This document shows, in pieces, positions 11,577 through 64,000 of a stretch of DNA of 64,000 bases; position 1 is the first letter of the stretch, and every line of letters starts with the position of its first letter. The position numbers and the translations under genes are program-made. Under the pieces are notes generated by a model, which was not told where the DNA came from, searched no databases, and was given only the letters and a program-made list of their open reading frames with translations. Location of the stretch: contig CAWDSK010000003.1 in the NCBI GenBank assembly GCA_963804995.1, positions 1,696,203-1,760,202 of the forward strand. The letters run 5' to 3'. The DNA comes from an uncultured Acidobacteriota bacterium. Lineage in GTDB: Bacteria > Acidobacteriota > Terriglobia > UBA7540.

Positions 11577-11683
11577 CTTGGAGTGCGGTAGCAGCAGCTA
11601 CCGCCTTGCCTTCTGTAGCCCATACGAGAATCGAACGAAATCGAGAGCAGGAAAGGCGGTAGCTGCTGCTACCGCACTCCAAG
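11577..11683. repeat. REPIN-like element
   Basis: Perfect 31-bp inverted arms at 11577-11607 and 11653-11683 (CTTGGAGTGCGGTAGCAGCAGCTACCGCCTT). Confidence 0.85.
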
Positions 11684-15004: not shown

Positions 15005-15115
15005 CTTGGAGTGCGGTAGCAGCAGCTACCGCCTTGCCTCCATACCTATTTGCCGCTTGAATCACCTATTTGCGGCATGAAGCGAAGGCGGTAGCTGCTG
15101 CTACCGCACTCCAAG
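15005..15115. repeat. REPIN-like element
   Basis: 31-bp arms at 15005-15035 and 15085-15115 are identical to those at 11577-11683; the spacer differs. Confidence 0.85.
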
Positions 15116-38962: not shown

Positions 38963-39877
38963 TTAGTGCCCCCTGGCCGGAGTGATTTGCAGGCTGGGGG
39001 TCATCAGCAGGCCCACCGCCATCTTGATCATGACCACCAACACAATCGAAGCAAGCAGGATTTTCAGTTGGTCGCCTCGCAACCGGCGGCCAACCCGAGT
39101 CCCGATCTGCGCTCCGATCGTGGACCCAGCCGCCAGGAGGAGCGCCAGCATCAGGTCCACGGTATGGTTGGTGGTCGCCTGCAAGAACGTCACCCCGGCG
39201 GAGGTAAAGAGAATCTGGAAGAGGTCAGTTCCAACCGCTTTGTGCATGGGCATGCGCAACAGATAAACCATCATGGGAACCATGATGAACCCACCGCCCA
39301 CCCCCATGATCGCGGCCAGGATTCCCACGATCCCACAGAGCACGAAGGGGACGAAAACGGAATGACGAATTTGGGAGCGGGGGAAGTTAATCTGGAACGG
39401 CAGGCGGCTGAGTAGACCTTGCTCGGCTGAAGCGCGATGCGATTTCGGGACCAGCGCCCCTCGCCGGAGGTTTTGAAGGCTCTCGAAGAACATGTAGCTG
39501 CCGATCGCGCCCAGCACGATCACGTAGGTCACCGTAATGACGAAGTCGGCGCTGCCCAGGGCGCGGAGGACCTTGATGATCCGCACGCCCACCGCTGCCC
39601 CTGCCAAGCCGCCCAGAAGCAACACGAAACCCAACTTAACGTCCACATTCCCCAAACGGAAATGGGCGGCCGCCCCCGAAGACGATCCCGCCACAATCTG
39701 GCAGGAGTCCGAGGCGGCAGCCACGGTGGGCGGAATACCAATCATCATCAGGATGGGAGTGAGCAGGAACCCTCCACTGACTCCAAACATGCCGGAAAGG
39801 AAACCGACCAGGGCCCCCACTCCCACCAGAATCGGGAGGGGGATGCTCATGCCTGCCACGGGGAGAAGTATCCACAT
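38963..39877 (-). CDS. TauE/SafE (TSUP) sulfite exporter family protein
   Basis: GFLSGMFGVSGGFLLTP, MGVGGGF, AVGTDLFQI. Confidence 0.9.
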   Translation of the reverse strand: MWILLPVAGMSIPLPILVGVGALVGFLSGMFGVSGGFLLTPILMMIGIPPTVAAASDSCQIVAGSSSGAAAHFRLGNVDVKLGFVLLLGGLAGAAVGVRIIKVLRALGSADFVITVTYVIVLGAIGSYMFFESLQNLRRGALVPKSHRASAEQGLLSRLPFQINFPRSQIRHSVFVPFVLCGIVGILAAIMGVGGGFIMVPMMVYLLRMPMHKAVGTDLFQILFTSAGVTFLQATTNHTVDLMLALLLAAGSTIGAQIGTRVGRRLRGDQLKILLASIVLVVMIKMAVGLLMTPSLQITPARGH

Positions 39878-39899
39878 TATGGCCTCACAACCGTTCGAG

Positions 39900-40880
39900 C
39901 TACAGGTGGCCTGGAAGGGGGCCACTGCGAGGTAGAGTCGAGACCGGGCGCGAGACTGCCGGAGGGCTGATGACTTCGGCGGGATGAAGCAGGTTGGAGG
40001 GCGTTAAGACTAAGCCGAATACCATTTTTATGGTCACGCCGACCACGAGGGAAGCCAGCACAATCATCAACTGCTCGCCTCGCAGATGCCGGCTCAAGCG
40101 AGCGCCCACTTGCGCTCCCACCGCCGAGCCGGCCGCCATAGCCAGGGCTAGAACAAAATCCACCGTCTGATTCGTCGTGGCCTGCATGTAGGTCACGCCG
40201 ATGCATAAGAAGAGAATCTGAAAGAGGTCGGTGCCGACCGCAACGTGGGTGGGCATTCCGAGCAGATAAACCATCATCGGCAACATCACGAAACCCCCTC
40301 CCACCCCCATGATCGACGCGAGGACGCCGACCAGGAACGCCAACATCGGAGGGATGAGGATCGAGTGACGGACACCCGAACGGGGAAATTCCATTTGCCA
40401 CGGCAGCCGGGATAACACGCTTTGGCGGCTTCGGGGTTTCGCTGATCGGCGTACCATGGTCCCGCGACGCATGGTCCGTAAGCTCTGCACGAGCATATAC
40501 GCCCCGAGACCGCCGAGCACCACGACGTAGGTCAGGGTGATCAAGAGATCGGCTTCACCCAGGCTGCGCAGGATTTTAATGGCCCGGACGCCCACTGCCG
40601 CACCCAACCAGCCACCCGTCAGCAGCAGGGCTCCAATCTTCACGTCGACATTCCCCAGGCGAAAATGCGCCGCGACCCCGGAGGAAGAGGTGGCGACCAT
40701 CTGGCAGGAACCAGACGCCGCCGCAACCGTGGGGGGAACTCCGATCATCATCAAGGCGGGGGTAATCAGGAACCCTCCGCCTACGCCCACCAGCCCCGAA
40801 AGCACTCCTACGGAAGTACCGATGCCGAGCACATAGAGCAGACTGAGGCTGATGCCAGCAACCGGCAGGAAGATAGACAC
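39900..40880 (-). CDS. TauE/SafE (TSUP) family protein, tandem paralog
   Basis: GLVGVGGGFLITP, MGVGGGF, AVGTDLFQI; GTG start after GGAGG. Confidence 0.9.
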   Translation of the reverse strand: MSIFLPVAGISLSLLYVLGIGTSVGVLSGLVGVGGGFLITPALMMIGVPPTVAAASGSCQMVATSSSGVAAHFRLGNVDVKIGALLLTGGWLGAAVGVRAIKILRSLGEADLLITLTYVVVLGGLGAYMLVQSLRTMRRGTMVRRSAKPRSRQSVLSRLPWQMEFPRSGVRHSILIPPMLAFLVGVLASIMGVGGGFVMLPMMVYLLGMPTHVAVGTDLFQILFLCIGVTYMQATTNQTVDFVLALAMAAGSAVGAQVGARLSRHLRGEQLMIVLASLVVGVTIKMVFGLVLTPSNLLHPAEVISPPAVSRPVSTLPRSGPLPGHL

Positions 40881-41221: not shown

Positions 41222-42034
41222 TCACACGCGGGTGGCCGGGATCAGTTCGTCCAGGTTCAATCCCGTCACACCCGAAACGGCCATGGCCACCCGCCTCACC
41301 TCACCCAATTCACCGGTTTCCGTCACCTTGCCTCGGAGGAAAACCTGCCCGCCTCTCGCGTTTGCCTCCACTTCGAGATGTGACGTACTGGGATTCATCG
41401 CCAGAGCAGCGCGCACGCGGCTGGCGACGGCCAGGTCGTTCAACCCGGCCCGGCACTCCGCAGACAGCTCGAAACACCGCCGCGTTCGAGTGAGGGCGTT
41501 AATGACCTCACACGCTTCCTCGATGTCCATATGTTCCAGGTTAAGCACGAGATCATAGAGAGCGGGATCTTCCCAGTCGACACCATAGAGAAATTGCGTC
41601 CACTTTTTCCTGCCCTCGTCCATTTTCTTGATGTAGTCGAGCGCTTCATTGCCGGTGAGCTTTAGCCTCTCTTGGACCATCGCCAGCCGCATTTCGATGG
41701 GAGCAATGATCCTGATCCTCAGGACCGCGGCTGCCCCCTTCAACATCAAATGCCCCGCATTCCCGTGATAGACCACGTTTCCATCCTTTACCTCCTCGGC
41801 CAGGGCGGCTTGAAATAACGTCAGATATTGGTACCGCTTATGCTGGAAGCGTTCCAAGAACCCCGGGGGATTGAGCAAGGCGGCGAGGAGTTCCTCGTGA
41901 GAAACCCCACTTGCTGCGGCGCGCTCGACGATAGTTTCTCGTCCGATGCAGCGATAACCCAGCTTGGCAGCCAGGCACTCCGCAAGTGTCTTTCCCCCAC
42001 TGAAGGAACCGCGCGAGATCGTAATCACGGACAT
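41222..42034 (-). CDS. Cytidylate-kinase-like protein with C-terminal BON-like domain
   Basis: ITISRGSFSGGKTLA P-loop-like, YDLVLN, RVRAAL...GQVFLRGKV...VSGVTGL. Confidence 0.8.
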   Translation of the reverse strand: MSVITISRGSFSGGKTLAECLAAKLGYRCIGRETIVERAAASGVSHEELLAALLNPPGFLERFQHKRYQYLTLFQAALAEEVKDGNVVYHGNAGHLMLKGAAAVLRIRIIAPIEMRLAMVQERLKLTGNEALDYIKKMDEGRKKWTQFLYGVDWEDPALYDLVLNLEHMDIEEACEVINALTRTRRCFELSAECRAGLNDLAVASRVRAALAMNPSTSHLEVEANARGGQVFLRGKVTETGELGEVRRVAMAVSGVTGLNLDELIPATRV

Positions 42035-42179: not shown

Positions 42180-42647
42180 CTAGGCGAGCCCCAAACCGAC
42201 CACCTGCACGACCGCCCGCAGCCTCTCCATCGCCTCCACGTAACGCTTGAAGAAAATCTGGGAGATTTTCCTTTCGATGGCGTAGCCGGCCACGGGGTTT
42301 TTATCCAGGATAACGCGCAGGACCCGGCTCTCCACCTTGAGCACATCCGAATCTTCGACGCACTCGGCGTTCAACAGGTACCGCTCCCCTTGCGCCAGGG
42401 AGGAGACCCCGAAGACGCCTCCTTCGGGGATGTTGTCCACGAGCAAGCTGAGGCCTCCCGGGGTGGGTCTCCTCAGTTCCACCTTCCCTTTCAGGAGTAC
42501 AAACAGGTGGCTTGCCGGAAGCCCCGCGGAGTATACTTTTTCGCCTTTCTTGAGCCCCACGACCCCGGATGCGTTGCTGAGCTTTTCCACTTCCTCCGGG
42601 GTCAGGAGCGCGAACAGGTCCTGGCGTTGCAGCTTTTCTGTGACCAT
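42180..42647 (-). CDS. Stand-alone cyclic-nucleotide-binding domain protein
   Basis: LFALLTPEE, GEKVYSAG, LFVLLKGKVEL, GVFGVSSL; no HTH. Confidence 0.8.
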   Translation of the reverse strand: MVTEKLQRQDLFALLTPEEVEKLSNASGVVGLKKGEKVYSAGLPASHLFVLLKGKVELRRPTPGGLSLLVDNIPEGGVFGVSSLAQGERYLLNAECVEDSDVLKVESRVLRVILDKNPVAGYAIERKISQIFFKRYVEAMERLRAVVQVVGLGLA

Positions 42648-42877
42648 AGCAGTTCCTCCTATGCCAGCATTTCTCCCGATGGCAACCAAGCGGAAAACCA
42701 CAATGTTCTGCGCGCCGGAAACTCAATCCGGAATTTCCCTTTTCATCTTCCGCACGACCGGTAACCTACACCCGACCGCTTCTGTATGCAAGGTCCAGTC
42801 GATATCCCTACTCATCATGGTAAGATTGTGGGGCATTCGCCCGGATGCAATCGGAAGTGTGGGGGGCAACAGTTTTG

Positions 42878-44572
42878 ATGCAAGCAGGGAAAGTCTATTT
42901 AGTAGGCGCCGGACCGGGTCATCCCGAACTGCTGACCGTGAAAGCCGCTAAGCTTCTGAAGGTGGCTGACGTCATCGTATATGATCGCCTCATTCAGGAG
43001 GAAGTTCTCGCCCTTGCCAAGGTTTCGGCAGAGCGCATCTATATGGGTAAGCCCGTGGGGAAGCACGATTCGCGCCAGGCGGAAATCGACGAACTGCTGG
43101 TTCGCAAGGCGCGCGAAGGGAAGGTGGTGGTTCGGCTCAAAGGCGGGGATCCCTTCCTGTTTGGGCGAGGGGGAGAAGAGGCGGAGTTCCTCGCCGACCA
43201 CGATGTTCCCTTCGAGGTGATTCCGGGAGTCTCTTCGGCCCTGGCGGCGCCTCTTAGTGCCGGCATTGCCGTGACGCACCGCGACGCCGCTTCCTCGGTG
43301 GCGATTGTCACCGGCCACGAAGCCACCAAAGACACCAGTCGGGTGAACTGGGAGGCCTTGGGCAAACTGGATACCCTGGTTTTCCTGATGGGCGTGCATA
43401 ACGTAGGGCGAATCTCCCAGGAGCTCATGGCGCACGGTCGCGACCCCGCGACGCCCGCCGCGATGATCCAGATGGCCTTTTGGCCGGAAGAGAAAGTTGT
43501 TACTGGGACCCTGGGCAGCATCGCGGCGGAGGTTGAGCGAGCGGGAATCGGACCTCCCGCGACGCTGGTGGTGGGAGAGGTTGTCCGTCTGCGAGAAAAA
43601 CTGAAAGGCTCCCAACGCGACCTCCATCCCTCGGAGGCAAGCCCGCCCGTGGGCTCAGGGCCAATGCCCGATCAGCTCCTCAGGATGGCGATGGCGGGGT
43701 TGGGCAGCCAGGTGCTGGGATTCGCACTTTCGCTGGCGCTGTTTGACCACTTGGAGGAAGGGCAATCGGCCGCAGCCCTGGCGCGCCGATTTGATCTGCA
43801 TGCAAGTGCTATGGCGGAGATCCTCGATAGCCTGGCGGCGCTGGGTTTGCTTGAGTGCACCGCCGAAGGTTATCGAAACCTGGAACTGGCGTCGCTCTAT
43901 TTGCGCAGCGATGCACCCCAGAGTTTGAAGCCCGTGCTGCTCCATCAACTGGCTCAGTTCAGCCGCTGGGAAGCGATTGCCGCTTACGCCCGCAGCGGTC
44001 AACCAGGCCAGGTGCCGTCCGATCAAGAAGCTTCCGACTTCGATTGCTGTGAATGTCTGGCTGGCTTTTCTGCTCCCGCGGTCGTGAACAGACTCGATTT
44101 GGCTGAAAAGAGCCCCGTGCTCCTGCTAGGTTGGGGAGGAGAAACTTACCGCGCAGCTCTCGCCCGGCGCTGGCCTGATCTTGCTTTGGAAATTAGGAAT
44201 CCGGTCTTGACCTCTGACTCGCTGCCCGCGCCTCAGCCCAATACCTATGGAGCTGTTGTGCTGTCGGGCCTGATCGCCCGGTCGGCCTGCGAGGAAGAGC
44301 GAGCTCTGGAGGTGTCGGCCGCGGCCCTCGAAGACGACGGCGTGTTGATCCTGCACGATACCTTCCTGCCCACCGGCGCTCTGCCTCCGGAAGTAGTGCT
44401 GGGGGCGTTGGGACGCCACCTCACTTGCCGGCCCAGCGGGAACTGGTCTATTGAGCGGTTGCGCGCCGCGCTCGAAGCCCTCGGGCTCCGCGACGTGCGC
44501 GCGGAGTATCTCCCCGCTGGTACGGTGATCGTGACGGCACGCAAAGGCCGCAACGTGCCTCTCAAGTTCTAA
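42878..44572 (+). CDS. cobA: Uroporphyrinogen-III C-methyltransferase fused to an O-methyltransferase-like domain
   Basis: VYLVGAGPG, YDRL, RLKGGDPFLFGRGGEE, PGVSS. The C-terminal ~300 aa has an OMT dimerisation-like helix bundle and a degenerate Rossmann fold. Confidence 0.82.
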   Translation: MQAGKVYLVGAGPGHPELLTVKAAKLLKVADVIVYDRLIQEEVLALAKVSAERIYMGKPVGKHDSRQAEIDELLVRKAREGKVVVRLKGGDPFLFGRGGEEAEFLADHDVPFEVIPGVSSALAAPLSAGIAVTHRDAASSVAIVTGHEATKDTSRVNWEALGKLDTLVFLMGVHNVGRISQELMAHGRDPATPAAMIQMAFWPEEKVVTGTLGSIAAEVERAGIGPPATLVVGEVVRLREKLKGSQRDLHPSEASPPVGSGPMPDQLLRMAMAGLGSQVLGFALSLALFDHLEEGQSAAALARRFDLHASAMAEILDSLAALGLLECTAEGYRNLELASLYLRSDAPQSLKPVLLHQLAQFSRWEAIAAYARSGQPGQVPSDQEASDFDCCECLAGFSAPAVVNRLDLAEKSPVLLLGWGGETYRAALARRWPDLALEIRNPVLTSDSLPAPQPNTYGAVVLSGLIARSACEEERALEVSAAALEDDGVLILHDTFLPTGALPPEVVLGALGRHLTCRPSGNWSIERLRAALEALGLRDVRAEYLPAGTVIVTARKGRNVPLKF

Positions 44573-44769: not shown

Positions 44770-44835
44770 TGTTCGGACATTAAGTTTCAAGGCAGATAAA
44801 AAACTCTTGTGTTGAAAATTAACGAGACTAACATT
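44770..44835 (+). promoter_or_regulatory. Conserved 66-bp promoter/operator module, copy A (upstream of dsrD-like gene)
   Basis: 56/66 identical to 57826-57891; TGTTCGGACA near-palindrome; TTGTGT-N16-TAACAT. Confidence 0.8.
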
Positions 44836-44874
44836 CTCCCTGGTTACAAGTTTGGATCGAGATGGAGAAAGAGC

Positions 44875-45123
44875 ATGGGCGAAATCGCGATTGAAACTTT
44901 GGCGGAAGAAATGTATCAAATGATCGCCGAGTGTGACGGGAAAAGGAATCTGAAGGCCGGCGATCTGACCAAGGGCGTGATGGCCAAGCATAGCGAAGGA
45001 ACTTGCGACAAAGAGGATTGCAAGAAGGCTATCCGCCTGCTCATTGATTCCGGCCGTTGCGTCTACAGCTACCTGGGGGGGTCTTACATCCAATTACCTC
45101 CGAAGCCGGACGCCGCCGCTTGA
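44875..45123 (+). CDS. dsrD: Divergent DsrD-like small winged-helix protein
   Basis: 82 aa; KKAIRLLIDSGRCVYSYLGGSY parallels the DsrD KK.L..LV....L.YWSSGST pattern; lies directly upstream of dsrN. Confidence 0.6.
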   Translation: MGEIAIETLAEEMYQMIAECDGKRNLKAGDLTKGVMAKHSEGTCDKEDCKKAIRLLIDSGRCVYSYLGGSYIQLPPKPDAAA

Positions 45124-50642: not shown

Positions 50643-51192
50643 AGGGTCGGCGGGCCGCCTGCGGGCCCTACGACGCGGGGTAAGGAGGTCGGACGCAGCA
50701 TCGCTCGCCTGCTCTATTTATGTAGCCCCGCCACCTTTCGCAAAGAAGTGGGACGTCCCACTTGATACCCTACCGGGCCCCTAGCGGCCGTAGTCCCACC
50801 AATTTTCGCAACTTCATGCGTTTTTTTCCTGTGACATTTGACTTGCGGCACCGCCGCGCTATGCTGTCTGCCTGGCCGATTTGAAACAGGTTCCCAGACG
50901 CAGGGTTTCGATCTCCCGGCCAAGGTTCGTTGAGCATTCTTGAAAGAGGCTGACACGCGGAACGGCCAATCCGGGGCAGTCTCGAAAGTCGTCATTGCCA
51001 CCAGATCAATTTCGCTGTGGCGCGCGATGGCGCCATTGCTTTTGATTCCTCTCTACCCGCGTGTCTCTTTTTTTACAAAGTGCCAGCATACCCGATGTGT
51101 TAAGGTTAGCCGTGAAGACTGAGGGGGAGCAACAAAAAAGCCGCCCCTGAGGTCTGAGTCAACTCCTGGACTTTGATTAAGGAGTGGCAGAC

Positions 51193-51651
51193 ATGGAGAC
51201 ACTCGAAAGTGTGATCGCAGAACATCCGTTTCTTAAGGGTTTGGAACCGCGCTACCTCGAATTTCTCGTGGGATGCGCATCCAACGTGCGCTTTGAACCT
51301 GGCCAATTTGTTTTCCTGGAGGGAGGGGAAGCCAACCAGTGCTATCTCATCCGACAGGGCAAGGTGACCCTGGAGATCGACGCTCCTCCACGCGGCACCA
51401 TCATAATCCAGACCCTTGGCCAGGGAGACGTCCTGGGTTGGTCGCAGATCTTTCCTCCTTATCGTTGGAAATTTTCCGCCAGGGCAGTCGAACTCACTCG
51501 GGCCATTGCCCTGGATGGTAAATGCCTTCGCGAAAAATCCGAGGAAGATCACGACCTTGGCTACGAGCTTCTGAAGCGGTTTGCGCGGGTGATCCAGGAA
51601 CGCCTCCAGGCAACGAGGCTGCAACTGATCAACCTCTACACGGTCGGATAA
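51193..51651 (+). CDS. Stand-alone cyclic-nucleotide-binding domain protein
   Basis: HPFLKGL, FLEGGEAN, YLIRQGKV, GDVLGWS; no HTH. Confidence 0.85.
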   Translation: METLESVIAEHPFLKGLEPRYLEFLVGCASNVRFEPGQFVFLEGGEANQCYLIRQGKVTLEIDAPPRGTIIIQTLGQGDVLGWSQIFPPYRWKFSARAVELTRAIALDGKCLREKSEEDHDLGYELLKRFARVIQERLQATRLQLINLYTVG

Positions 51652-52218: not shown

Positions 52219-53055
52219 TTAAAGCCTCCCTGTCATGCCGTGATAGATCATTTCGAAAGCCAGCACGGCGACCACAATGCCGAAAACCACCCGTAGCGAG
52301 GCGGTGCGGGTCCTGGCTAAAACTCGCGCCCCCAGCAACGCGCCCAGCGAAACGCCCAGCATAACGGGCATCGTAAGACCGGGATCGATGTACCCGCGCT
52401 GGAGATAGACCCCTGCGCTGGCGGCGGCCGTGACCCCGATCATGAAGTTGCTGGTGGTGGTGGAAACCTTGAAGGGGATGCGCATCGCCTGGTCCATGGC
52501 GATTACCTTGAGCGCTCCCGAGCCAATACCGAGGAGTCCGGAGAGCCCCCCCGCCACAAACATCAAGCTGAATCCGGCGGGGATGCCGCGCACGTGATAG
52601 CTCTGGATACCCTGGGTGGTGGGATAGGTGGAGCTCATCTTCAGCAGCTCCCCCAAACGGTTTGGGGGACCGTCGGAGCTCATCTTGGGCGCCGGGCGAG
52701 TCGAAGCATAGGCGGAGAAAAGGAGGACGATTCCGAAAATGATACTTATTGTGGAGGTCGGGAGCCGGGTGGCGACGGAAGCTCCCACCACCGCACCCAC
52801 CGTCGTGGCGATTTCCAAAAACATCCCGATGCGGATGTTGGTAAAACCTTCCTTGACATAGGCGGCTGCCGCCCCCGAAGAAGTGGCAATAACCGAAACC
52901 AGGGAGGCGCCGATAGCATAACGGATATCAACTCCAAATAACATCGTGAGAAGTGGCGTAATGACAATGCCGCCCCCAAGTCCGGTCAACGCTCCGAGAA
53001 AGCCGGCCGCTAACGATCCCAACCCGATCAAGAGGGTGTGTTCGAGGATGTTCAT
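52219..53055 (-). CDS. TauE/SafE family protein
   Basis: GALTGLGGG, GLLGIGSG, STTTSNFMIGVTAA. Confidence 0.9.
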   Translation of the reverse strand: MNILEHTLLIGLGSLAAGFLGALTGLGGGIVITPLLTMLFGVDIRYAIGASLVSVIATSSGAAAAYVKEGFTNIRIGMFLEIATTVGAVVGASVATRLPTSTISIIFGIVLLFSAYASTRPAPKMSSDGPPNRLGELLKMSSTYPTTQGIQSYHVRGIPAGFSLMFVAGGLSGLLGIGSGALKVIAMDQAMRIPFKVSTTTSNFMIGVTAAASAGVYLQRGYIDPGLTMPVMLGVSLGALLGARVLARTRTASLRVVFGIVVAVLAFEMIYHGMTGRL

Positions 53056-55250: not shown

Positions 55251-57194
55251 CTAGAAATTAGCGAAGAGGCTGCTCTGTACCCGAAATTGGGTTGCAGTTC
55301 CCCGCGGAAGAGGAACATAGAAATGACGAGCTGGATCATTGGGACTGATCTCATCTTGTATATACAGGATGTTTTGCCATTGTAGAAACCTCGCCAGACC
55401 AACGTCAAACCGGAAGGAATGGGTCCGGATGTTGACGCCTGAATTCGTGCCCATTTGGGTGTCTGCGAATGCAGAAACCATGGAATTGGCGTCTTTGACG
55501 CCGTAAAAGTAGAGGAATCTCACATCTCCGGCTTTGGTGATTTGGCCAGCATTGAAAGTCACCATCCAAGCGTTTCGCAGAAAGCTTGTGCCGAAGTTTC
55601 GGCTGGCTTGCAAGTCAAGGAATATGGGGAATTCCTCACCGTGAACCCTCAGGCCTTCCTTGGTCACACGGTAAGCCAAATGGCCGATCTGAAAATGGCC
55701 TGCGGTGTAAATTCCCCCGCCCGGAAGGGTCGTGGCGGTCCCAGTTCCGGTCAGCGGGCCTGCTACAGTGACCCCCAGTTCATTATTGACGATTATGGGA
55801 TAACCGGCGTTGGTTTCCCCAAGAGCGATTTGGTTGGCGTTCCGATATAGTAAGAAATTGCTAAACAGATACTGGGACCATCCAGGTTTGATCCTTCCTA
55901 TCACGAACACCCCTTCGTCAAAGAGGTCTGCCGATCGGACGTTCTCGCCCGGTTTGTATCCAGCCTGAAGGTAAATACAGGCGACCGGGGGATTTGCAGC
56001 CGCACATTGCCTGGCCGTGGGCAACACCTGAATGTTGGGGTTCGTAAGAACATACTGGCCAGCCCTGAAATCAATTCGGGTTATGCCGAGGGAGTTGTCT
56101 CCCGGTGAGGTTCCGACGGATTCTTGGGAGCCGTTGAACCTCACGTTATTACTCCACATGAAGCGAGTGAAATCCTGAAAGACCTCCGGCATCTTCCCTA
56201 CCTGAAAGTTCAGGTTCGAGTTCGGGTGATAGTCTAACCATGCTTCGCTCAAGAAGATGGGCCCTTTGACCGCGCCCCCCCCAAAGTCCGTGCTGTCCGT
56301 CAATGGATTCTCAAAATTCCCCGAGCCAAGTTGAAAATGAACATCTAGTTGCGGATCGATCCCTTTGTCAAAGTTCAGCCGAGCCCGGTAACGGCCCCGC
56401 ATGTCCTGCTGAGTGCCAGCTACAGCATTTGCTGACCGGAAAATCCCATCGGCTCGCACGCGAAAATCTCCACTAAACCTGAAACCCCCAATACCCTTGG
56501 AGATTCCTTCCACCTGCTTGCTGAGGCTTTCTAATCTTGTGGTGTAGGGTTGGGTCTGGTCCGGCGGCGTCTGAGCGGAGCTCTGCGGCGACGAGCGGGG
56601 GGGATTCGCGCCGGCGGCTGGAGCAAGACTGGCCATGGCCGCCGGCTTGTCCGGCTGGAAATTCGCCAGACCGGGCTGGTGCGGGACATCAAGAACTCCG
56701 GGGGCGGCCCCTGGCGGATTTGCGACCGTCTCTGTCGTCCGCACCACAGCCAGCTCCACGTGGGGAGCCGCAGTCTGGGCGTGAGGGGGGGCCACGCTGG
56801 GTTCAGTTGAAACCTCTATTGACCGGTTTAGTGATTTCTTCAACTCATCCAGTGCGACGATGAGCTTGGCGATCTGTTCTTGTTGGAGACCCAGCAACTT
56901 TTCCTGATGCGCGAGTTGTTCCCGTAGTGAAATAATGTCGTCGGCCCTGGCCTCATTCCGTGGAGCCGGCCGGGATGGTTTGGCGCCCAATGAATTCCCA
57001 CGCTTGGGACCAAGCCGCGAACATTTCTTTTTCGCGAGTTCTGAACTCGGAGTTCGCGCCTCGGTCGTGCTGCTGAGGTTAGGATTCGGAGCATTGTCTG
57101 GGGCACAATATAAACACAGACTGCCTGCCAGGACGATGGCGCAGACCAAGCATAAAGACAAACTTATTGGATTCGAACACCGTGATGTTTTCAT
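55251..57194 (-). CDS. Putative porin with N-terminal coiled coil
   Basis: Signal peptide, coiled coil, FSGDFRVR, RYRARL beta-barrel start, C-terminal Phe. Confidence 0.7.
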   Translation of the reverse strand: MKTSRCSNPISLSLCLVCAIVLAGSLCLYCAPDNAPNPNLSSTTEARTPSSELAKKKCSRLGPKRGNSLGAKPSRPAPRNEARADDIISLREQLAHQEKLLGLQQEQIAKLIVALDELKKSLNRSIEVSTEPSVAPPHAQTAAPHVELAVVRTTETVANPPGAAPGVLDVPHQPGLANFQPDKPAAMASLAPAAGANPPRSSPQSSAQTPPDQTQPYTTRLESLSKQVEGISKGIGGFRFSGDFRVRADGIFRSANAVAGTQQDMRGRYRARLNFDKGIDPQLDVHFQLGSGNFENPLTDSTDFGGGAVKGPIFLSEAWLDYHPNSNLNFQVGKMPEVFQDFTRFMWSNNVRFNGSQESVGTSPGDNSLGITRIDFRAGQYVLTNPNIQVLPTARQCAAANPPVACIYLQAGYKPGENVRSADLFDEGVFVIGRIKPGWSQYLFSNFLLYRNANQIALGETNAGYPIIVNNELGVTVAGPLTGTGTATTLPGGGIYTAGHFQIGHLAYRVTKEGLRVHGEEFPIFLDLQASRNFGTSFLRNAWMVTFNAGQITKAGDVRFLYFYGVKDANSMVSAFADTQMGTNSGVNIRTHSFRFDVGLARFLQWQNILYIQDEISPNDPARHFYVPLPRGTATQFRVQSSLFANF

Positions 57195-57825
57195 GTGAAT
57201 TCTCTCTTCAACAATTAACAGCCTGGCTACCTGCCGTTGGCCTGCCGGATGACTTCGCCCGGCCTCGCGGCACTTCGGCTTAGAGTTAGAAGTGTTTCTT
57301 CGGCACAGTTCCCGCTGCGCCTCGTATTTCACTTGGTGCGAGAGAAATCCGATTTTGCAGCGACACGCGAATACCTGCCCCTTCGAGAAGGGGGAGCATA
57401 TTCGTTCATTAAGCTAGTCCGTTGATCTGACGAAAGGGCATTGATTGTCGGCGGCAGGTCACGCATTTTCGACCGATAAATTAAGGGAGTAACTGGAGGC
57501 ACTCTTCCACTGGCACATCCGACGCGGGTGAAAGGCTTCCTTTGGACGCGGCCCGTCGGCGGACCTTTTTCGCCACACCCTGAGACGTTCCGAAACCTTA
57601 ACAAGTATATTAAGCTCTGTTTCTGTATCATTCCTCTGCATATTAGTATGCATCCGCAGCCGATCTCGCAAACCTTCACTTGCAAGAGGCCCTCGCACGA
57701 CGGGGAAAACTATCGCGCCTTGCGGACCGCTCGTCAAGCGGCATTGCGAGGGTTGACAGGAATAATCCAGAATGGTTCGGACATTTAGAGCCGGGCCCCG
57801 ACAAAACTGCCAAACGTCAATATTT

Positions 57826-57891
57826 TGTTCGGACATTAAGGATCAAGGCAGGCAAAAACATCTTGCGTTGACGATTAACGAGATTAACATT
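57826..57891 (+). promoter_or_regulatory. Conserved 66-bp promoter/operator module, copy B (upstream of marR-aprBA)
   Basis: 56/66 identical to 44770-44835; TTGCGT-N16-TAACAT; an extra GGTTCGGACA at 57774-57783. Confidence 0.8.
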
Positions 57892-57936
57892 TGACCCAGT
57901 TAAGCAGTTGGAGCAAGGAGGCTGCTCGGCCAGTGT

Positions 57937-58581
57937 ATGGAAAGCAACAGTGATACCGCGCTCCACGAAGAGGTCACTCCCCAGTTGAACAACGAGTTTC
58001 TGAGTAGTGCACGCGTCTTTGCATGGTCGGTTCGCGAGGTCATTGAGCGGACTGTACTGCGGGAAGTGGCGGGCAAGAATTTCACCTTTTCCCAACTAAA
58101 GCTTCTCTACCTCGTAGCCCATACGGACACCCTCAACATTAGCGACGCAGCGACCTTTCTGGGCGTCAGCCCCGCGGCCGCCAGCAAGACCGTGGACAAG
58201 CTGGTGCGACGCCGGCTGCTGCGTCGCGCCGAAACACAGCAAGACCGGCGCACCAGCCACCTCTCCTTAACCGAAACCAGCCGCAAGCTAATGGACGCTT
58301 ACATCGCTGCCCGGGATGAGAGGGCACGGGCTGTTTTTTCCCAGTTTTCCGCCGACGAATTGCGGCGCACCTCCGAAGTCCTAGACCGCTTGGCGGGGGC
58401 CATCACCAGCAGTGGTGCCGATCCGAACGCGGTATGCATGCAATGCGAGATTTACTTTCGCGATGTATGCCGCTTTCAGAAATACGGTCAGCGGAATTGT
58501 TTTTACCAGCATCATCAGAAGGAAGAGCAAGACCGTGCCAGCACGTGCACGGATGTTGTTAGTGAGCAAAAGGGGGACTAA
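57937..58581 (+). CDS. MarR-family regulator with C-terminal Cx2Cx7Cx9C motif
   Basis: TFSQLKLL, ISDAATFLGVSPAAASKTVDKL, DRR..LSLT wHTH; CMQC..C..C tail; stop overlaps the aprB ATG (TAATG). Confidence 0.88.
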   Translation: MESNSDTALHEEVTPQLNNEFLSSARVFAWSVREVIERTVLREVAGKNFTFSQLKLLYLVAHTDTLNISDAATFLGVSPAAASKTVDKLVRRRLLRRAETQQDRRTSHLSLTETSRKLMDAYIAARDERARAVFSQFSADELRRTSEVLDRLAGAITSSGADPNAVCMQCEIYFRDVCRFQKYGQRNCFYQHHQKEEQDRASTCTDVVSEQKGD

Positions 58582-59021
58582 TGCCGAGTTACGTCAATCC
58601 TGAAAAATGCGATGGCTGCAAGGCCCTGGATAAAACCGCCTGCCAGTACATTTGTCCCAATGACCTGATGGTCTTGGATAAAGACAAGATGAAGGCCTAC
58701 AACCGCGATGTATCGATGTGTTGGGAGTGTTACAACTGCGTCAAGATCTGCCCCACACAGGCTGTTGAAATACGCGGTTATGCCGATTTCGTCCCGCTGG
58801 GGGCTTCCGCTACGCCCATGCGCTCCACGGATTCTATCCTGTGGACGGTGAAGTTTCGTAACGGAACAATCAAACGCTTCAAATTCCCGATCCGCACCAC
58901 TGCCGAAGGTACCGCAGTACCGGACGGCGGCTTTGAGACTAAGGGAGGCTTAGACGCGCCTGATTTATTCACCGAACCGGCGTCGTTGGGTCTGCCCGAA
59001 GTTTTTACCCTGAGACGATAG
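58581..59021 (+). CDS. aprB: Adenylylsulfate reductase beta subunit
   Basis: MPSYVNPEKCDGC, CWECYNCVKICP, RGYADF, KRFKFPIRTT. Confidence 0.97.
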   Translation: MPSYVNPEKCDGCKALDKTACQYICPNDLMVLDKDKMKAYNRDVSMCWECYNCVKICPTQAVEIRGYADFVPLGASATPMRSTDSILWTVKFRNGTIKRFKFPIRTTAEGTAVPDGGFETKGGLDAPDLFTEPASLGLPEVFTLRR

Positions 59022-59037: not shown

Positions 59038-60966
59038 ATGGCCAATTTTGAAACCGTGACAGTAGAAACCGACTTGCTCATTCTAGGCGGCGGCATGGCC
59101 GCCTGCGGAGCGGCGGTGGAAGCTGCCTTTTGGGCCAAGCAGCACGGCTTGAAGGTAGCGCTGGTTGATAAAGCCGCGGTAGACCGATCCGGCGCCGTGG
59201 CGATGGGGCTGTCCGCGATTAACCAGTACGTGGGTCTAAGGGATGGCGCCAATACCGTGAAGGACTATGTAGATTACGTGCGCAGTGATCTGATGGGCAT
59301 CACCCGGGAAGATTTGGTGGCCAACATCGCCCGGCACGTGGACTCCACCGTCCACTTGTTTGAGAAGTGGGGCCTGCCGATCTGGAAGGATGAGAAAGGC
59401 GCCTACGTTCATGAGGGCCGGTGGCAGCTCATGATCAACGGCGAATCCTACAAGGTTGTCGTGGCGGAAGCTGCCAAGAACGCCTTGCTGCAAAGCGGTG
59501 TTGGCCAGATCTTTGAGCGCGTATTCATCGTCGGGCCGCTCATGGATGGCGAGCGCTGTGCTGGGGCGGTGGGGTTCTCGGTCCGCGAGGACAAGTTCTA
59601 CGTGTTCAAAGCCAAGGCTACGTTGGTAGCCATGGGCGGCGCCGTGCACGTCTTCAAACCCCGGAGTTCCGGCGAAGGCATGGGCCGCGCCTGGTACCCA
59701 CCCTGGAACTCGGGCTCCTCGGCCTACTTCACCCTTCGGGCCGGGGCGGAGATGACATGCCAGGAAGTGCGCTTCATTCCGGTCCGTTTCAAGGACGCGT
59801 ACGGTCCGGTGGGTGCTTGGTTCCTGCTCTTCAAATCCCGGGCCACGAACTCTCAGGGGGGCGACTATATGGTGGAGCGCCGGCCGGAGCTGGCCAAGTG
59901 GGGGCCCTATGGCCGCGTCAAGCCCGTTCCCGCCAATCTGCGCAACTACCTCGGCATGCTGGATATTATGGACGGCAAGGGGCCGATCAGTATGCGGACC
60001 GAGGAGGCCCTCCAGAAAATCGCCGACGCCTACAAGGACGATCCTAAAGCCTACAAGAAAAAGATGAAGGATCTCGAATCCGAGGCCTGGGAAGACTTCT
60101 TGGACATGACGATCTCACAAGCAATCCTCTGGGCTTCCACCAACGTTCAGCCCGAGGAGCGAAGTTCGGAGATCGCCGCGGCGGAGCCTTACTTCATCGG
60201 CTCTCACTCCGGAGCGTCCGGCGCCTGGGTGAGTGGTCCGGAAGACTTGCAAACTGATGAAACCCGCACGGACTATTTCTGGGGTTACGCGAACATGTCC
60301 ACCGTGAAGGGCCTGTTTTGTGCCGGTGACGCCTCCGGTGCTTCCAGCCATAAGTTCTCCTCGGGTTCCCACGCCGAGGGGCGCATCGCTGCCAAAGCCG
60401 CCGTCAAGTTCGTGGTGGAAAACAACACCATGCCGGGGGTCGATGCGGCAATGTTGGAAAGCCTGAAAGCTGAAATCCTTCAACCTCTGGATCTTTACGA
60501 AGAGCAGAAGAACGCCACCACCGATCCGGAGATCAACCCGAACTACATCAAGCCCCGCATGTTCATGTTCCGGCTCCAGAAGATCATGGACGAGTACGCG
60601 GGTGGTATCACGGCCCAATTCATCACCAATGGCCCCATGTTGACCAGGGCTTTGGAGTTGTTGGGCATGCTTCGTGAGGACTCCCATAAGCTGGCAGCTT
60701 CGAACTTACATGAACTGATGCGCTGCTGGGAGAACACTCACCGCATGTGGCAGGCGGAAGCGCATGTCCGCACCATGTTGTTCCGTGAGGAGACGCGCTG
60801 GCCCGGGTACTACTTCCGCGCCGACAAGCCTGCGCTCAACGAAGAGAAGTGGCACGTCTTTGCCAATTGCCGGTTCGATCCCCAGAAGGACGCGTGGGAG
60901 ACGCGAACCCGGCCCATGAAGCACGTTTTCCCGCAGCCTCAAGAGCACGAAATGTTGGGCGGTTAG
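59038..60966 (+). CDS. aprA: Adenylylsulfate reductase alpha subunit
   Basis: RSGAVAMGLSAIN, WQLMINGESYK, RFKDAYGPVGAW, HKFSSGSHAEG, REETRWPG. Confidence 0.97.
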   Translation: MANFETVTVETDLLILGGGMAACGAAVEAAFWAKQHGLKVALVDKAAVDRSGAVAMGLSAINQYVGLRDGANTVKDYVDYVRSDLMGITREDLVANIARHVDSTVHLFEKWGLPIWKDEKGAYVHEGRWQLMINGESYKVVVAEAAKNALLQSGVGQIFERVFIVGPLMDGERCAGAVGFSVREDKFYVFKAKATLVAMGGAVHVFKPRSSGEGMGRAWYPPWNSGSSAYFTLRAGAEMTCQEVRFIPVRFKDAYGPVGAWFLLFKSRATNSQGGDYMVERRPELAKWGPYGRVKPVPANLRNYLGMLDIMDGKGPISMRTEEALQKIADAYKDDPKAYKKKMKDLESEAWEDFLDMTISQAILWASTNVQPEERSSEIAAAEPYFIGSHSGASGAWVSGPEDLQTDETRTDYFWGYANMSTVKGLFCAGDASGASSHKFSSGSHAEGRIAAKAAVKFVVENNTMPGVDAAMLESLKAEILQPLDLYEEQKNATTDPEINPNYIKPRMFMFRLQKIMDEYAGGITAQFITNGPMLTRALELLGMLREDSHKLAASNLHELMRCWENTHRMWQAEAHVRTMLFREETRWPGYYFRADKPALNEEKWHVFANCRFDPQKDAWETRTRPMKHVFPQPQEHEMLGG

Positions 60967-61020: not shown

Positions 61021-61035
61021 CACCGGTTGAATGTT

Positions 61036-61314
61036 ATGAAACAGGAATGTCCATATTGCCAGGATACGCTGGTTCGTTGGGCCAATCCCCAGGGGAGCAG
61101 TTGGGGCGGAGAATTCCAGTACGTCTGCTTCAACGATGAATGCCCCTATTTCGTGCGGGGTTGGGCTTGGATGCGCGACCACTATGCGGCTTCAGCATCG
61201 TATCGATATCGATTTGACCCTTTGACCGGCGAGAGCGGTCCGCTTCCCGTCTGGTCAAATGATGCACTGAGATCCAGTATCCTGGCGGAAGAAGTGAAGG
61301 CTCCTTATGCCTGA
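61036..61314 (+). CDS. Small Cys-rich (zinc-finger-like) hypothetical protein
   Basis: CPYC...[11 protein letters not shown]; overlaps the next gene. Confidence 0.7.
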
Positions 61315-62146
61315 CCCGGTCGTGACTGCGGAAGGGATCCTCAAAGACCAAGCACGGATGACGTTAGATGATCAGTTCACATTCCATTGCGGCCTCAAAC
61401 TGGATTGCTTCACCGAGTGTTGCCGTGATGTTTCCATCGTGCTGACGCCGTATGACATCCTGCGGGTCAAAAGAGCCCTGCGAGTCGACTCCACGGAATT
61501 CCTGGAAAAGCACACGCTCCCCATATTCGGTGCGCAGCAGAAGTTCCCTTTGACCATCCTGAGGATGGACCCTGAAACCAAGAAGTGCCCTTTCGTCACC
61601 GAACAGGGTTGCCAGGTGTACGCGGATCGTCCCTGGGCATGCCGCATGTACCCGTTGGGCGTAGCCAAACCCAAGAATCCGACGCCCGCCGATCAGCCAT
61701 TCTATTTCGTGCTGCATGAGGAGCTATGCCATGGGCACGGCCTAGGACAGACGCACTCGGTGCGCGATTGGATCGCGGAGCAGGGAATTGAAGAATACGA
61801 AATGATGGGGGCATCCTTCCAGGAACTCGTCCTCCACGATTTTTGGAATCACGACGCCCCTCTCACGCCTCAGCAAGCCGAGATGTTCTACATGGCCTGC
61901 TACGATCTGGACCGCTTCCGACGCTTTGTTTTTGAATCGCGATTCCTGGAACTGTTTGAGATTGACGAAGCCAGAGTGGAGGCACTAGGCAGCGATGACG
62001 AGGAACTGCTGGAGTTTGGCTTGCTATGGCTTCGCTTCAGTTTGTTTGGCGAGAAGACCATGAAGATTCGCAAAGAGGTCGTGGAGGCTAGACAGCAGGC
62101 CTCCAGCCAAGGCTCGACGACGCTTGCACCCGGGAGTGCAGTGTGA
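61307..62146 (+). CDS. YkgJ/FliB-family cysteine-cluster protein
   Basis: [22 protein letters not shown]...[16 protein letters not shown]. Confidence 0.85.
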
Positions 62147-63429
62147 CGGACTTATCGGGGCTTCCATCCAACTTGCGCGGCACACCGATCCTGGTGATCG
62201 GAGGAGGCATCGCCGGTCTGACCACCGCCATTGAGGCGGCCGAGGCTGGCTGCCAAGTGATCCTGGTGGAGAAAACTCCGCACTTGGGTGGAAGAGTAGC
62301 GCGGGCGCACCAATACTTCCCAAAACTTTGTCCTCCGTCCTGCGGATTGGAGATCAATTTTCGCCGCCTGCGGGAAAATCCGCAGGTTAGCGTATTGACG
62401 TTGGCGGAAGTGGAAGGGATCAGCGGATCGCCGGGAGACTACGAAGTCACTGTGCGTCTGACCCCGCGCTTTGTGACTGAGGCGTGCACACTTTGTGGGG
62501 CTTGTGCAGAAGCCTGTCCGGGGGAGAGACGCGACGATTTCAATTACGGCCTTTCTAAGACGAAGGCCGCTTATTTGCCGCACGCCACGGCTTACCCGGC
62601 GCGCTACGTCATTGACCGGGCTGCCTGCTCTGACGGTTGCCAATCCTGCAAGAAAGCCTGTTTCTATGGCGCCATTGACCTTGACCAAAGAGTGGAAAAG
62701 AAAACCTTCCGGGTCGCTGCCGTGGTGGCGGCTACTGGCTGGGCGCCCTACGACGCCACAAAACTCGAGAACCTGGGTTCCGGCAAATTCCCCAACGTGG
62801 TGACGAACGTCATCTTGGAGCGCATGGCAGCGGTGGATGGTCCCACCGGGGGACGCATTCTTCGCCCCTCAGACAGCAAGGCGCCCGAGACCGTGGCTTT
62901 CGTTCAGTGTGCAGGGTCTCGCGATGAGAACCATCTTCCCTACTGCTCTGCCGTGTGCTGTGCCGCCTCGATCAAACAGGTTACCTATATTCGCAATCTC
63001 TATCCTCAAGCGCTGGCCACGATTTTCTATATCGATGTCCGAGCCCTGGGCCGACTTGAGGAGTTCTACGCGACGGTCGCGGCGGATGAGAAGGTCCGTT
63101 TCGTGAAGGGGAAGGTTGCGAAAGTGGAAGAGGCACCGGAGACTCACGATCTGCTTGTGACGGCGGAAGACGTGCTCAAGGGGAAGAAGCAGACGCAACG
63201 GTTTGACCTGGTCGTCTTGGCTACTGGTATCGTTCCGCAGACGGATGGGCTGCCCGAAGAATTCAAGTTGGATGAATTCCGCTTTCTCAGTGCCGCAGAA
63301 GGCAACGCGGGGCTTTATGGCGCCGGCTGCGCACATCGGCCGGAAGAAGTCTCCGCCACCGTGCAGGATGCTACCGGAGCGGCGCTCAAAGCTCTCCAAT
63401 GTGTAGTTAGAAGTACGGCTCATGGATAA
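62143..63429 (+). CDS. qmoA: QmoA (HdrA-like flavoprotein)
   Basis: IGGGIAG, YFPKLCPPSCG, QCAGSRD, YCSAVCC; downstream of aprBA. Confidence 0.9.
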   Translation: MTDLSGLPSNLRGTPILVIGGGIAGLTTAIEAAEAGCQVILVEKTPHLGGRVARAHQYFPKLCPPSCGLEINFRRLRENPQVSVLTLAEVEGISGSPGDYEVTVRLTPRFVTEACTLCGACAEACPGERRDDFNYGLSKTKAAYLPHATAYPARYVIDRAACSDGCQSCKKACFYGAIDLDQRVEKKTFRVAAVVAATGWAPYDATKLENLGSGKFPNVVTNVILERMAAVDGPTGGRILRPSDSKAPETVAFVQCAGSRDENHLPYCSAVCCAASIKQVTYIRNLYPQALATIFYIDVRALGRLEEFYATVAADEKVRFVKGKVAKVEEAPETHDLLVTAEDVLKGKKQTQRFDLVVLATGIVPQTDGLPEEFKLDEFRFLSAAEGNAGLYGAGCAHRPEEVSATVQDATGAALKALQCVVRSTAHG

Positions 63430-64000
63430 GAAACTCGGAATTTACATTTGCGGAGGATGTGGAATTGGCGAGGTGGTGGATACCCCGCAAATCGCCAAAG
63501 CAGTGGGCAATACGGCGAGAGGGGCCGTGTGCCGTGTTCACCCGTATCTTTGTGGCAGCGAAGGGGTTAGCTTGATTCGGCAGGACTTGGCCGCCGGAGC
63601 CGTAACCCTCCCGGTAATCGCCGCTTGCTCCCCCCGCATGAAAACGGACATTTTTGCGCTGGGCGATGGCATTGTCCCGGAACGAGTTAACCTTCGCGAG
63701 CTGGTTGCCTGGTGTCACAAGCCCCACGACGAAGACACGCAGATGCTCGCCGAAGATTACCTGCGCATGGGGATCGTCAAGGCGCAGAAGACGGAGCCCC
63801 TGGAACCTTTGGCGGAGGTTATCTCCCGCACGCTCCTGGTGGTGGGCGGTGGCATCACGGGGATTACCGCGGCCCTCGAGGCGGCGGAGGCTGGATACGA
63901 GGTAGTGCTGGTGGAAAAGCAGGCTCGCCTCGGGGGTTTCGTCTCGACCCTCAAGAAACGTTTCCCCACCGCGCCTCCGTACACCGAGCTGATGAACGAC
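63422..64000 (+). CDS. qmoB: QmoB (HdrA-like), N-terminal part; runs off the right edge
   Basis: Manual translation MDKKLGIYICGGCGIG...IAACSPR...ERVNLRE...LVVGGGITG; overlaps the qmoA stop. Confidence 0.88.
   Translation, partial: MDKKLGIYICGGCGIGEVVDTPQIAKAVGNTARGAVCRVHPYLCGSEGVSLIRQDLAAGAVTLPVIAACSPRMKTDIFALGDGIVPERVNLRELVAWCHKPHDEDTQMLAEDYLRMGIVKAQKTEPLEPLAEVISRTLLVVGGGITGITAALEAAEAGYEVVLVEKQARLGGFVSTLKKRFPTAPPYTELMND

Follow-up and report, generated by a model that had tools for sequence, protein, structure and literature searches.

How is an operon for sulfate respiration kept silent in air and opened when oxygen is lost? Peat and wetland soils harbour abundant Acidobacteriota with the Dsr pathway. 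The question is raised here by a stretch of 64,000 nucleotides (the window) from an uncultured member of this phylum, near the end of which the gene for a MarR-family regulator with a tail of four cysteines runs into aprB, and which a preliminary description had read as an oxygen or redox switch for sulfate respiration. MAG CO124 is reported to switch between sulfate and oxygen respiration (PMC10564751); a word search for a regulator of this switch in the main text of that paper and of three related ones found none, and the word MarR is absent from the main text of PMC10564751, PMC6018796, PMC10591310 and PMC8528874. Our literature search returned no description of the regulator, a mention being possible in subscription journals, bioRxiv supplements or figures, which lay mostly outside its scope. 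A four-cysteine-tailed MarR protein with a predicted operator, heading a sulfate-respiration operon in part of the Acidobacteriota, apparently has not been described. In what follows we argue that the protein makes a good candidate for a redox gate of local reach and that it does not act as a global switch. The features discussed are collected in Table 1.

Table 1. Features of the window that bear on the regulator and its predicted targets
Feature	Position	Strand	Evidence
MarR-family regulator, 214 aa, C-terminal CxxC-x7-C-x9-C tail	57937..58581	+	ORF translation, Pfam, homologs, AlphaFold2
Four-Cys motif, codons 167-188, predicted metal or Fe-S site	58435..58500	+	sequence, conservation, purifying selection
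aprB ribosome site in MarR 3' end and TAATG stop-start overlap	58572..58583	+	sequence
aprB, APS reductase beta subunit	58581..59021	+	TIGR02060 197.9 bits, over cut-off
aprA, APS reductase alpha subunit	59038..60966	+	TIGR02061 over cut-off
Two small Cys-rich accessory ORFs (Ogr/Delta-like zinc finger; CxxCxxCC)	61027..62146	+	Pfam; syntenic in relatives
qmoA and start of qmoB	62143..64000	+	profiles; contig ends here
Candidate operator, 29-bp palindrome: two 13-bp units TTRAC-N3-RTYAA, 3 nt apart	57875..57903	.	motif search
Predicted core promoter: -35-like TTGCGT 57863-57868, -10-like TAACAT 57885-57890	57863..57890	+	conserved positions in orthologous promoters
Second upstream element ending TCGGACATTAAG	57813..57840	.	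window's clade only; likely another factor's site
Copy A of the promoter, ahead of dsrD-dsrN-sat-dsrM2K2, with upstream element, core promoter and two operator units, one good and one decayed	44773..44847	+	repeat, model scan
DsrD-like gene, first behind promoter copy A	44875..45123	+	homologs follow dsrAB in relatives; no Pfam match

A MarR protein with a conserved cysteine tail

On its profile matches the regulator is a true member of the MarR family. Both winged-helix profiles score over their cut-offs (PF12802 41.8 bits against 27, PF01047 37 bits against 24.6), and the Pfam matches at E<=0.001 are MarR-type, none of them Rrf2. The structure prediction that had been proposed as a check returned a confident MarR fold, tail included (AlphaFold2, mean pLDDT 92, tail 90-93, from an alignment of rows selected for the cysteine motif), with predicted N- and C-terminal dimerisation helices; the top Foldseek and VIA matches of this model are all MarR proteins with ordinary MarR cores. 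The genome holds one copy of the gene. Its closest named relatives are Acidobacteriota MAGs, and the best match of any row of a 128-row alignment to any named NCBIfam family had an E of about 1e-13.

Beyond the winged helix the sequence reads exactly as the preliminary description had it, C167-M-Q-C170-x7-C178-x9-C188-F-Y-Q-H192-H193. The cysteine spacing is exact in 119 of 121 sequences (the query and the best 120 of 475 homologs), the exceptions being one fragment and one C167V substitution. In a more distant set, made up of the query and 50%-cluster representatives among the best 150 listed, which were not picked for the motif and from which 27 short rows were set aside, the four columns hold cysteine in 120, 121, 122 and 120 of the 124 full-length rows; the four cysteines are kept across a regulator family reaching below 30% identity. 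The D-x-R wing motif (D103, R104, R105) is retained in 117-119 of the same rows. Codon changes relative to five orthologs are mostly silent in the tail (30 synonymous, 5 non-synonymous) and mostly replacing in the final 19 codons (7 synonymous, 27 non-synonymous), and, judged by these changes, the motif is under purifying selection. The histidine pair had been counted as part of the motif; it is no family feature (H193 occurs in 19 of 124 rows), and, not being conserved in distant members, it was set aside as a pair of ligands.

Database comparisons say little of what the tail is. It has no Pfam match in the query, none of the PDB sequence matches listed for the query extends past residue 165, and a search of the Atlas gave no usable match. 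Profile searches with the tail yielded only faint zinc-finger matches at noise level, to the GATA finger in 9 of 40 members (best E 0.0027) and to PDB entries at E 4.5 and 9. A model of the tail by itself folded poorly (pLDDT 65), and its best structural match had Z 3.6, none being at least 5. These results do not imply a novel fold. A stand-alone tail domain was considered and rejected: there were 15 short matches, and the nine inspected look like N-terminally cut members on short contigs.

The regulator as the likely first cistron of the apr-qmo operon

The last base of the TAA stop of the regulator gene (58579-58581) is also the first of the aprB ATG, confirming the overlap noted earlier; an overlap of one base recurs at 9 of 11 loci in genomes and at 57 of 79 in metagenomes. 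What it establishes is adjacency; the translational coupling that had been read from it does not follow, since aprB has a purine-rich ribosome site of its own (58572-58576) and the overlap is kept in only this part of the metagenome loci. Synteny with the apr genes proved firm: close homologs lie directly before aprB in 11/11 genome loci and in 72/79 metagenome loci, the latter drawn from the best 80 of 138 stretches without dereplication, and of the seven exceptions five end within 110 nt while two are real or unclear. Among the 121 genomes of the organism's own family the regulator family is found in 18 and aprA in 21; the two genes are adjacent in all 9 genomes that have both, and 12 of the 21 aprA genomes are without the regulator. 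Since the loci are kin, not independent, such counts are descriptive only.

As had been proposed, the regulator is likely to be the first cistron of an apr-qmo operon, and the transcription unit likely extends to dsrAB. In the seven relatives with enough flanking sequence the order beyond qmoA is qmoBC-dsrA. We did not find dsrA in the organism's own 92%-complete genome, but the contig ends inside qmoB, and we read the absence as a gap in the assembly, not a loss. Contigs assembled from peat RNA of relatives (about 88-90% alike) bridge the junction between the MarR gene and aprB in three of four runs of one study, the first listed piece starting at 57914; contigs of this kind cannot show a single transcript or its start, and for junction-spanning transcription they are only a hint.

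A candidate operator over the predicted promoter

In MarR biology, a palindrome over the -10 of a regulator's own operon indicates autorepression. That MarR proteins usually repress through palindromes over their own promoter had been noted at the outset. A candidate, tracking the gene in the loci compared, lies over the predicted -10 element, which falls inside it. Unseeded motif sampling of 81 dereplicated upstream regions recovered it with an information content of 21-24.5, against 8.7-9.3 in shuffled sequence; in 61 apr-linked promoters the mirror (dyad) symmetry of the 29-bp element peaks at its centre, and its pattern matches once in the window and in none of 100 shuffles. With a held-out model, built from 34 promoters of which none belongs to the window's clade, the window site comes first in the 7.55-Mb genome, at 23.2 bits against 16.2 for the next. 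Of 15 held-out apr-linked promoters, 9 score at least 12 bits; two of the remaining 6 belong to divergent members with a changed recognition helix and have no site, and four score 6-10. A tandem site precedes 6 of 18 members not linked to apr (p<=0.01), and a single 13-bp unit 11 of 24 (p<=0.05). Where aprB has no regulator beside it the operator is missing, the 15 upstream regions of this kind all scoring 8.7 or less; in 4 of these aprB follows dsrN, so that the true promoter probably lies further up, outside the scanned region, and one further region was too short to scan. Throughout, orthologous promoters share ancestry.

A scan for the sigma-70 consensus did not call the regulator promoter. 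In the window's clade the element ending TCGGACATTAAG precedes the -35 by a constant distance in each promoter copy; it occurs also at 57776-57785 and 44773-44784 and forms part of a 25-bp imperfect palindrome in relatives, and the Bryobacteraceae carry a different dyad, TCAGA...TCTGA, at a similar place. The element is probably the site of another factor, possibly of an anoxia activator. We also considered TGTTCGGACA as the MarR operator and rejected it: it is confined to the clade and lies upstream of the -35, and Bryobacteraceae orthologs without it keep the 29-bp palindrome.

Expression in the presence and absence of oxygen

Co-induction with its operon is expected of any first cistron and is no proof of control. 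In the supplements of PMC10564751, gene 1372 of CO124, annotated only as MarR family, carries CMQC-x7-C-x9-C and lies between aprB (1371) and a cobA-type gene (1373). Its RPKM values are 0, 1.2, 0 and 0 against 21.7, 33.9, 22.7 and 22.4, where we take the first four columns to be oxic, as PMC10564751 calls these genes inactive in air; the gene is nearly silent in air (log2FC -7.1, padj 4.6e-11), like aprB (-6.2) and dsrA (-5.5). The two Cys-rich ORFs between aprA and qmoA are induced by anoxia as well (-4.8 and -7.2), as is dsrD (-6.9). Since that experiment had sulfate in the medium throughout, induction cannot be put down to sulfate alone. In the tables of PMC6018796 for incubations with and without sulfate, the SbA3 regulator (SBA3_840016) does not appear.

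The second promoter copy and the reach of control

The regulator had been placed directly behind the second copy of a duplicated promoter, and the duplication before the regulator gene and dsrD is real: 44770-44861 and 57826-57917 are 76% identical over 92 nt. What had been claimed beyond this, control of both modules, is weakly supported: the copy of the site before dsrD and sat is weak and limited to the clade. Copy A has one good operator unit (44819-44831) and a decayed one of which the outer half is kept (44835-44847); its site scores 8.2 bits, rank 324 in the genome (shuffle p 0.027). It recurs at the same place in four genomes, all of the window's clade, and the three dsrD promoters scanned outside this clade (L007, L108 and L136) are without it. 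The DsrD-like gene behind copy A matches, by eye, the gene labelled dsrD in the supplement of PMC10564751. As dsrD is induced in CO124 and those three promoters have no site, another anoxia signal exists. A weak site before sat (46608, 9.1-9.5 bits) was set aside, not being kept in L003, L070 or L140.

A genome-wide regulon was likewise rejected: matches above 9, 11, 13 and 15 bits number 97, 35, 9 and 1, against about 128, 50, 18 and 7 in two block shuffles. The genome has ctaD over its cut-off, and within the 4 kb before ctaD, hdr/mvh and korA scores do not rise above background (33rd-87th percentile). The idea of a master switch is not borne out, no site having been found near the cytochrome oxidase, Hdr/Mvh or Kor genes and no regulator in more than half of the aprA genomes of the family.

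Distribution and distant relatives

The regulator occurs in 5 of 14 dsrA genomes of a class sample. A phylum sample contains 39 genomes whose dsrA passes the cut-off; full-length matches to the regulator are present in 3 of these, in one case before aprB. Loci were fetched for 26 members not linked to apr, 18 of which flank hdrABC-type, NiFe-hydrogenase/hyp or korDAB genes; of the other eight, 6 have unrelated neighbours and hence no anaerobic enzyme beside them, one lies near dsrM2K2 and one is without annotation. In a 39-row tree the 21 apr-linked rows form one branch (support 99/99) and 4 kor-linked rows fall on another. Taken together, neighbours and tree give the family the look of regulators that are each dedicated to an operon for anaerobic Fe-S enzymes.

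In one locus the apr-linked regulator is preceded, 6 kb upstream, by a second copy that has a promoter copy of its own (L002:4081-4683) and sits behind a cluster of membrane redox genes, and a cut-off second copy occurs at the same distance in another (L097:47-421), which suggests a recent duplication of promoter and regulator. In two divergent apr-linked members (L195:2654-3256 and L196:569-1258) the recognition helix is changed and the tail is a five-Cys variant; both are without the standard site and have in common a different short upstream motif. In four loci without the MarR gene a short sigma-70-family gene with regions 2 and 4, Pfam-checked in three of the four, precedes dsrN-aprBA (L163:16376-16996, L189:820-1626, L191:823-1629, L193:2312-3058) and is possibly an alternative regulator there. 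A plasmid search with one mid-distance member gave no match.

Comparison with known regulators

With generic MarR repressors (Rv1404, 2nyx; YusO, 1s3j; FabT, 6jbx) the protein shares the winged-helix fold, the DRR wing motif and a palindrome over its own predicted promoter, Rv1404 superposing on the model with Z 13.7 and rmsd 2.4 over 145 aligned residues; identity to these proteins is about 20%, and no PDB sequence match listed reaches the four-Cys tail of the query. AdcR and ZitR are likewise metal-dependent MarR repressors, zinc-responsive, with one or two TTAAC...GTTAA palindromes over the promoter (PMC6372160). Their TTAACYRGTTAA operator has a 2-nt spacer, whereas the unit here has 3 nt; their zinc sites lie in the core, not in a four-Cys tail, and their target operon is zit/adc; and against their family NF038251 the query scores 35.3 bits, below the cut-off of 175.

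RsrR of Streptomyces venezuelae has an O2-stable Fe-S cluster and binds DNA tightly when oxidised and weakly when reduced (PMC5015018), which is the logic needed here, but it is an Rrf2 protein with mixed Cys/His/Glu ligands and a broad regulon. ArnR of Corynebacterium glutamicum, a winged-helix repressor with a C-terminal Fe-S site, keeps narKGHJI off in air; its cysteines 179, 193 and 223 are widely spaced in a separate sensory domain, and it senses NO and serves nitrate respiration (PMC12343034). In place of the three spaced cysteines in a separate domain seen in ArnR- and SufR-like proteins, the regulator has four within 22 residues. Rex of Desulfovibrio is a redox-responsive repressor of the sulfate-reduction genes qmo and sat, but belongs to another family, senses NADH/NAD+ and has effects under 2-fold on a broad regulon (PMC4045070). 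SoxR and sHdrR of Hyphomicrobium denitrificans are Cys-dependent repressors of dissimilatory sulfur genes; they differ in acting on sulfur oxidation through a two-Cys sulfur bridge on an ArsR fold (PMC10451225), and the regulator has the MarR profile and predicted fold with a four-Cys tail in place of the ArsR-SmtB fold with its bridge.

Proposed mechanism and competing explanations

We propose a local autorepressor of aprBA-qmoABC-dsrAB, released when its predicted Cys4 centre is reduced under anoxia. The protein would bind the 29-bp palindrome over the predicted -10, two dimers covering the two 13-bp units, and so keep the operon off in air; reduction of the metal centre, most likely an O2-tolerant Fe-S cluster, would then lead to release from DNA, and co-transcription with the operon would load the cell with repressor during anoxia, allowing a fast shut-off when O2 returns. 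Silence of the operon in air means that the protein must bind DNA in its oxic form. A cluster that lets go of DNA when O2 destroys it would act in the wrong direction; the right one is obtained both with a repressor that works in air and is released by a signal of anoxia, ArnR being an example (PMC12343034), and with an O2-stable centre whose oxidised form binds, as RsrR has (PMC5015018). The parts of this proposal differ in strength. That the regulator binds the palindrome is quite probable, and that it represses the operon is likely; for a redox or O2-linked signal the balance tips only slightly in favour. An Fe-S redox centre is preferred on account of the four invariant cysteines and of neighbours that are almost all low-potential Fe-S enzymes, and for Fe-S as the predicted cofactor we would put the chances at even, zinc being possible but distinctly less probable and a protein without any cofactor less probable again. 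Cysteine spacing alone cannot tell zinc from Fe-S (PMC11138216), and zinc being compatible with the sequence, the combined proposal is tentative, its chances falling a little short of even.

The main rival would make the MarR protein a feedback limiter: a separate activator, acting under anoxia at the upstream element, would switch both modules on, and the MarR protein would only cap operon output according to Fe-S, metal or sulfide status. What copies A and B have best kept in common is indeed the TCGGACATTAAG element with the core promoter rather than the complete operator; anoxia induces dsrD in CO124, yet the three dsrD promoters scanned outside the clade have no operator; the ribosome site of the regulator, 15 nt from the ATG, suggests weak translation; and a sigma-factor gene stands before dsrN-aprB in loci without the regulator. 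We still judge a limiter unlikely, as the upstream element is found in one clade only, the operator follows the regulator across clades and operons, and no activator gene was identified. The repressor role could, alternatively, be kept with cysteines that bind zinc or form disulfides; the tail would then lack an Fe-S cluster and act as a zinc finger of structural kind or as a thiol switch. The spacing CxxC-x7-C-x8/9-C fits a zinc site, zinc fingers were the only matches to the tail, and the operator unit resembles TTAAC-N2-GTTAA of the zinc-sensing MarR proteins AdcR and ZitR (PMC6372160). Those proteins, however, bind zinc mainly through Glu and His residues of the core (PMC6372160), the query scores far below their cut-off, the zinc-finger matches are at noise level and the neighbouring genes encode Fe-S enzymes, not zinc uptake, which leaves this alternative about as unlikely as a limiter.

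Sensing of sulfite, sulfide or sulfane sulfur by the tail, in the manner of SoxR and sHdrR, with derepression once sulfur flux starts, is in our view improbable. The apr-linked branch does head a sulfur-respiration operon, Hdr-linked members handle disulfides, SoxR provides a precedent (PMC10451225), and induction of apr and dsr genes is reported to depend on sulfate in SbA2 (PMC6018796), which may or may not carry the regulator. But the same four cysteines flank Kor and hydrogenase-maturation genes, which makes the sulfane-sulfur sensing that the preliminary description had allowed for less likely; SoxR-type sensors use two cysteines on an ArsR fold; and sulfate was present in the oxic phase while the CO124 operon was off (PMC10564751). 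Least probable is a global O2 switch over both sulfate-reduction modules and the aerobic chain: the weak copy A site is kept in four genomes and ctaD is present, but there is one strong site genome-wide, with others no more frequent than in shuffles, and the regions before ctaD, hdr/mvh and korA are at background.

If the autorepressor proposal is true, the regulator would explain part of the switching between oxygen and sulfate respiration in these bacteria, and its gene with the site could mark redox-gated sulfate reducers in genomes. The proposal names a protein, a 29-bp target and four residues for mutation and predicts in which direction control acts, all of which can be put to the test in a laboratory host, with no need to culture the organism. 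Should the tail hold an Fe-S cluster, the MarR fold would carry a sensor module of a new kind. A bolder version is, for the present, doubtful: the protein would found a MarR subfamily with a new Cys4 Fe-S module, DNA-bound when oxidised and silencing both apr-qmo-dsrAB and dsrD-sat in air, as a dedicated oxygen or redox gate of dissimilatory sulfate reduction in facultative Acidobacteriota, with paralogs gating Hdr, hydrogenase and Kor operons through one shared unit, TTAAC-N3-GTTAA.

Other features of the sulfur island

Several further genes recur around these loci. A uroporphyrinogen-III C-methyltransferase fused to an O-methyltransferase dimerisation domain (42845-44572) has counterparts directly 5' of the MarR gene in most Bryobacteraceae loci, and a gene with cytidylate-kinase-like and BON domains (41222-42034) is found again beside apr/dsr clusters with or without the MarR gene. 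A Porin_5-like gene divergent from the apr operon (55251-57332) is kept in the window's clade, with an alginate-export-type gene at a similar place in L195, and offers a possible outer-membrane uptake route. A CGGC-domain gene (PF08821) is divergent from aprB in two MarR-less genomes (L168:10136-10528, L186:860-1213). The sulfur island of the window also holds two stand-alone cNMP-binding-domain proteins with no HTH match (42180-42701 and 51184-51651) and three TauE/SafE genes (38963-40880 and 52219-53055). Far upstream lie three long GC-rich inverted repeats with arms of 32-42 nt (974-1085, 11577-11683 and 15005-15115), REP-like elements of which two sit in a 3.4-kb duplicated unit.
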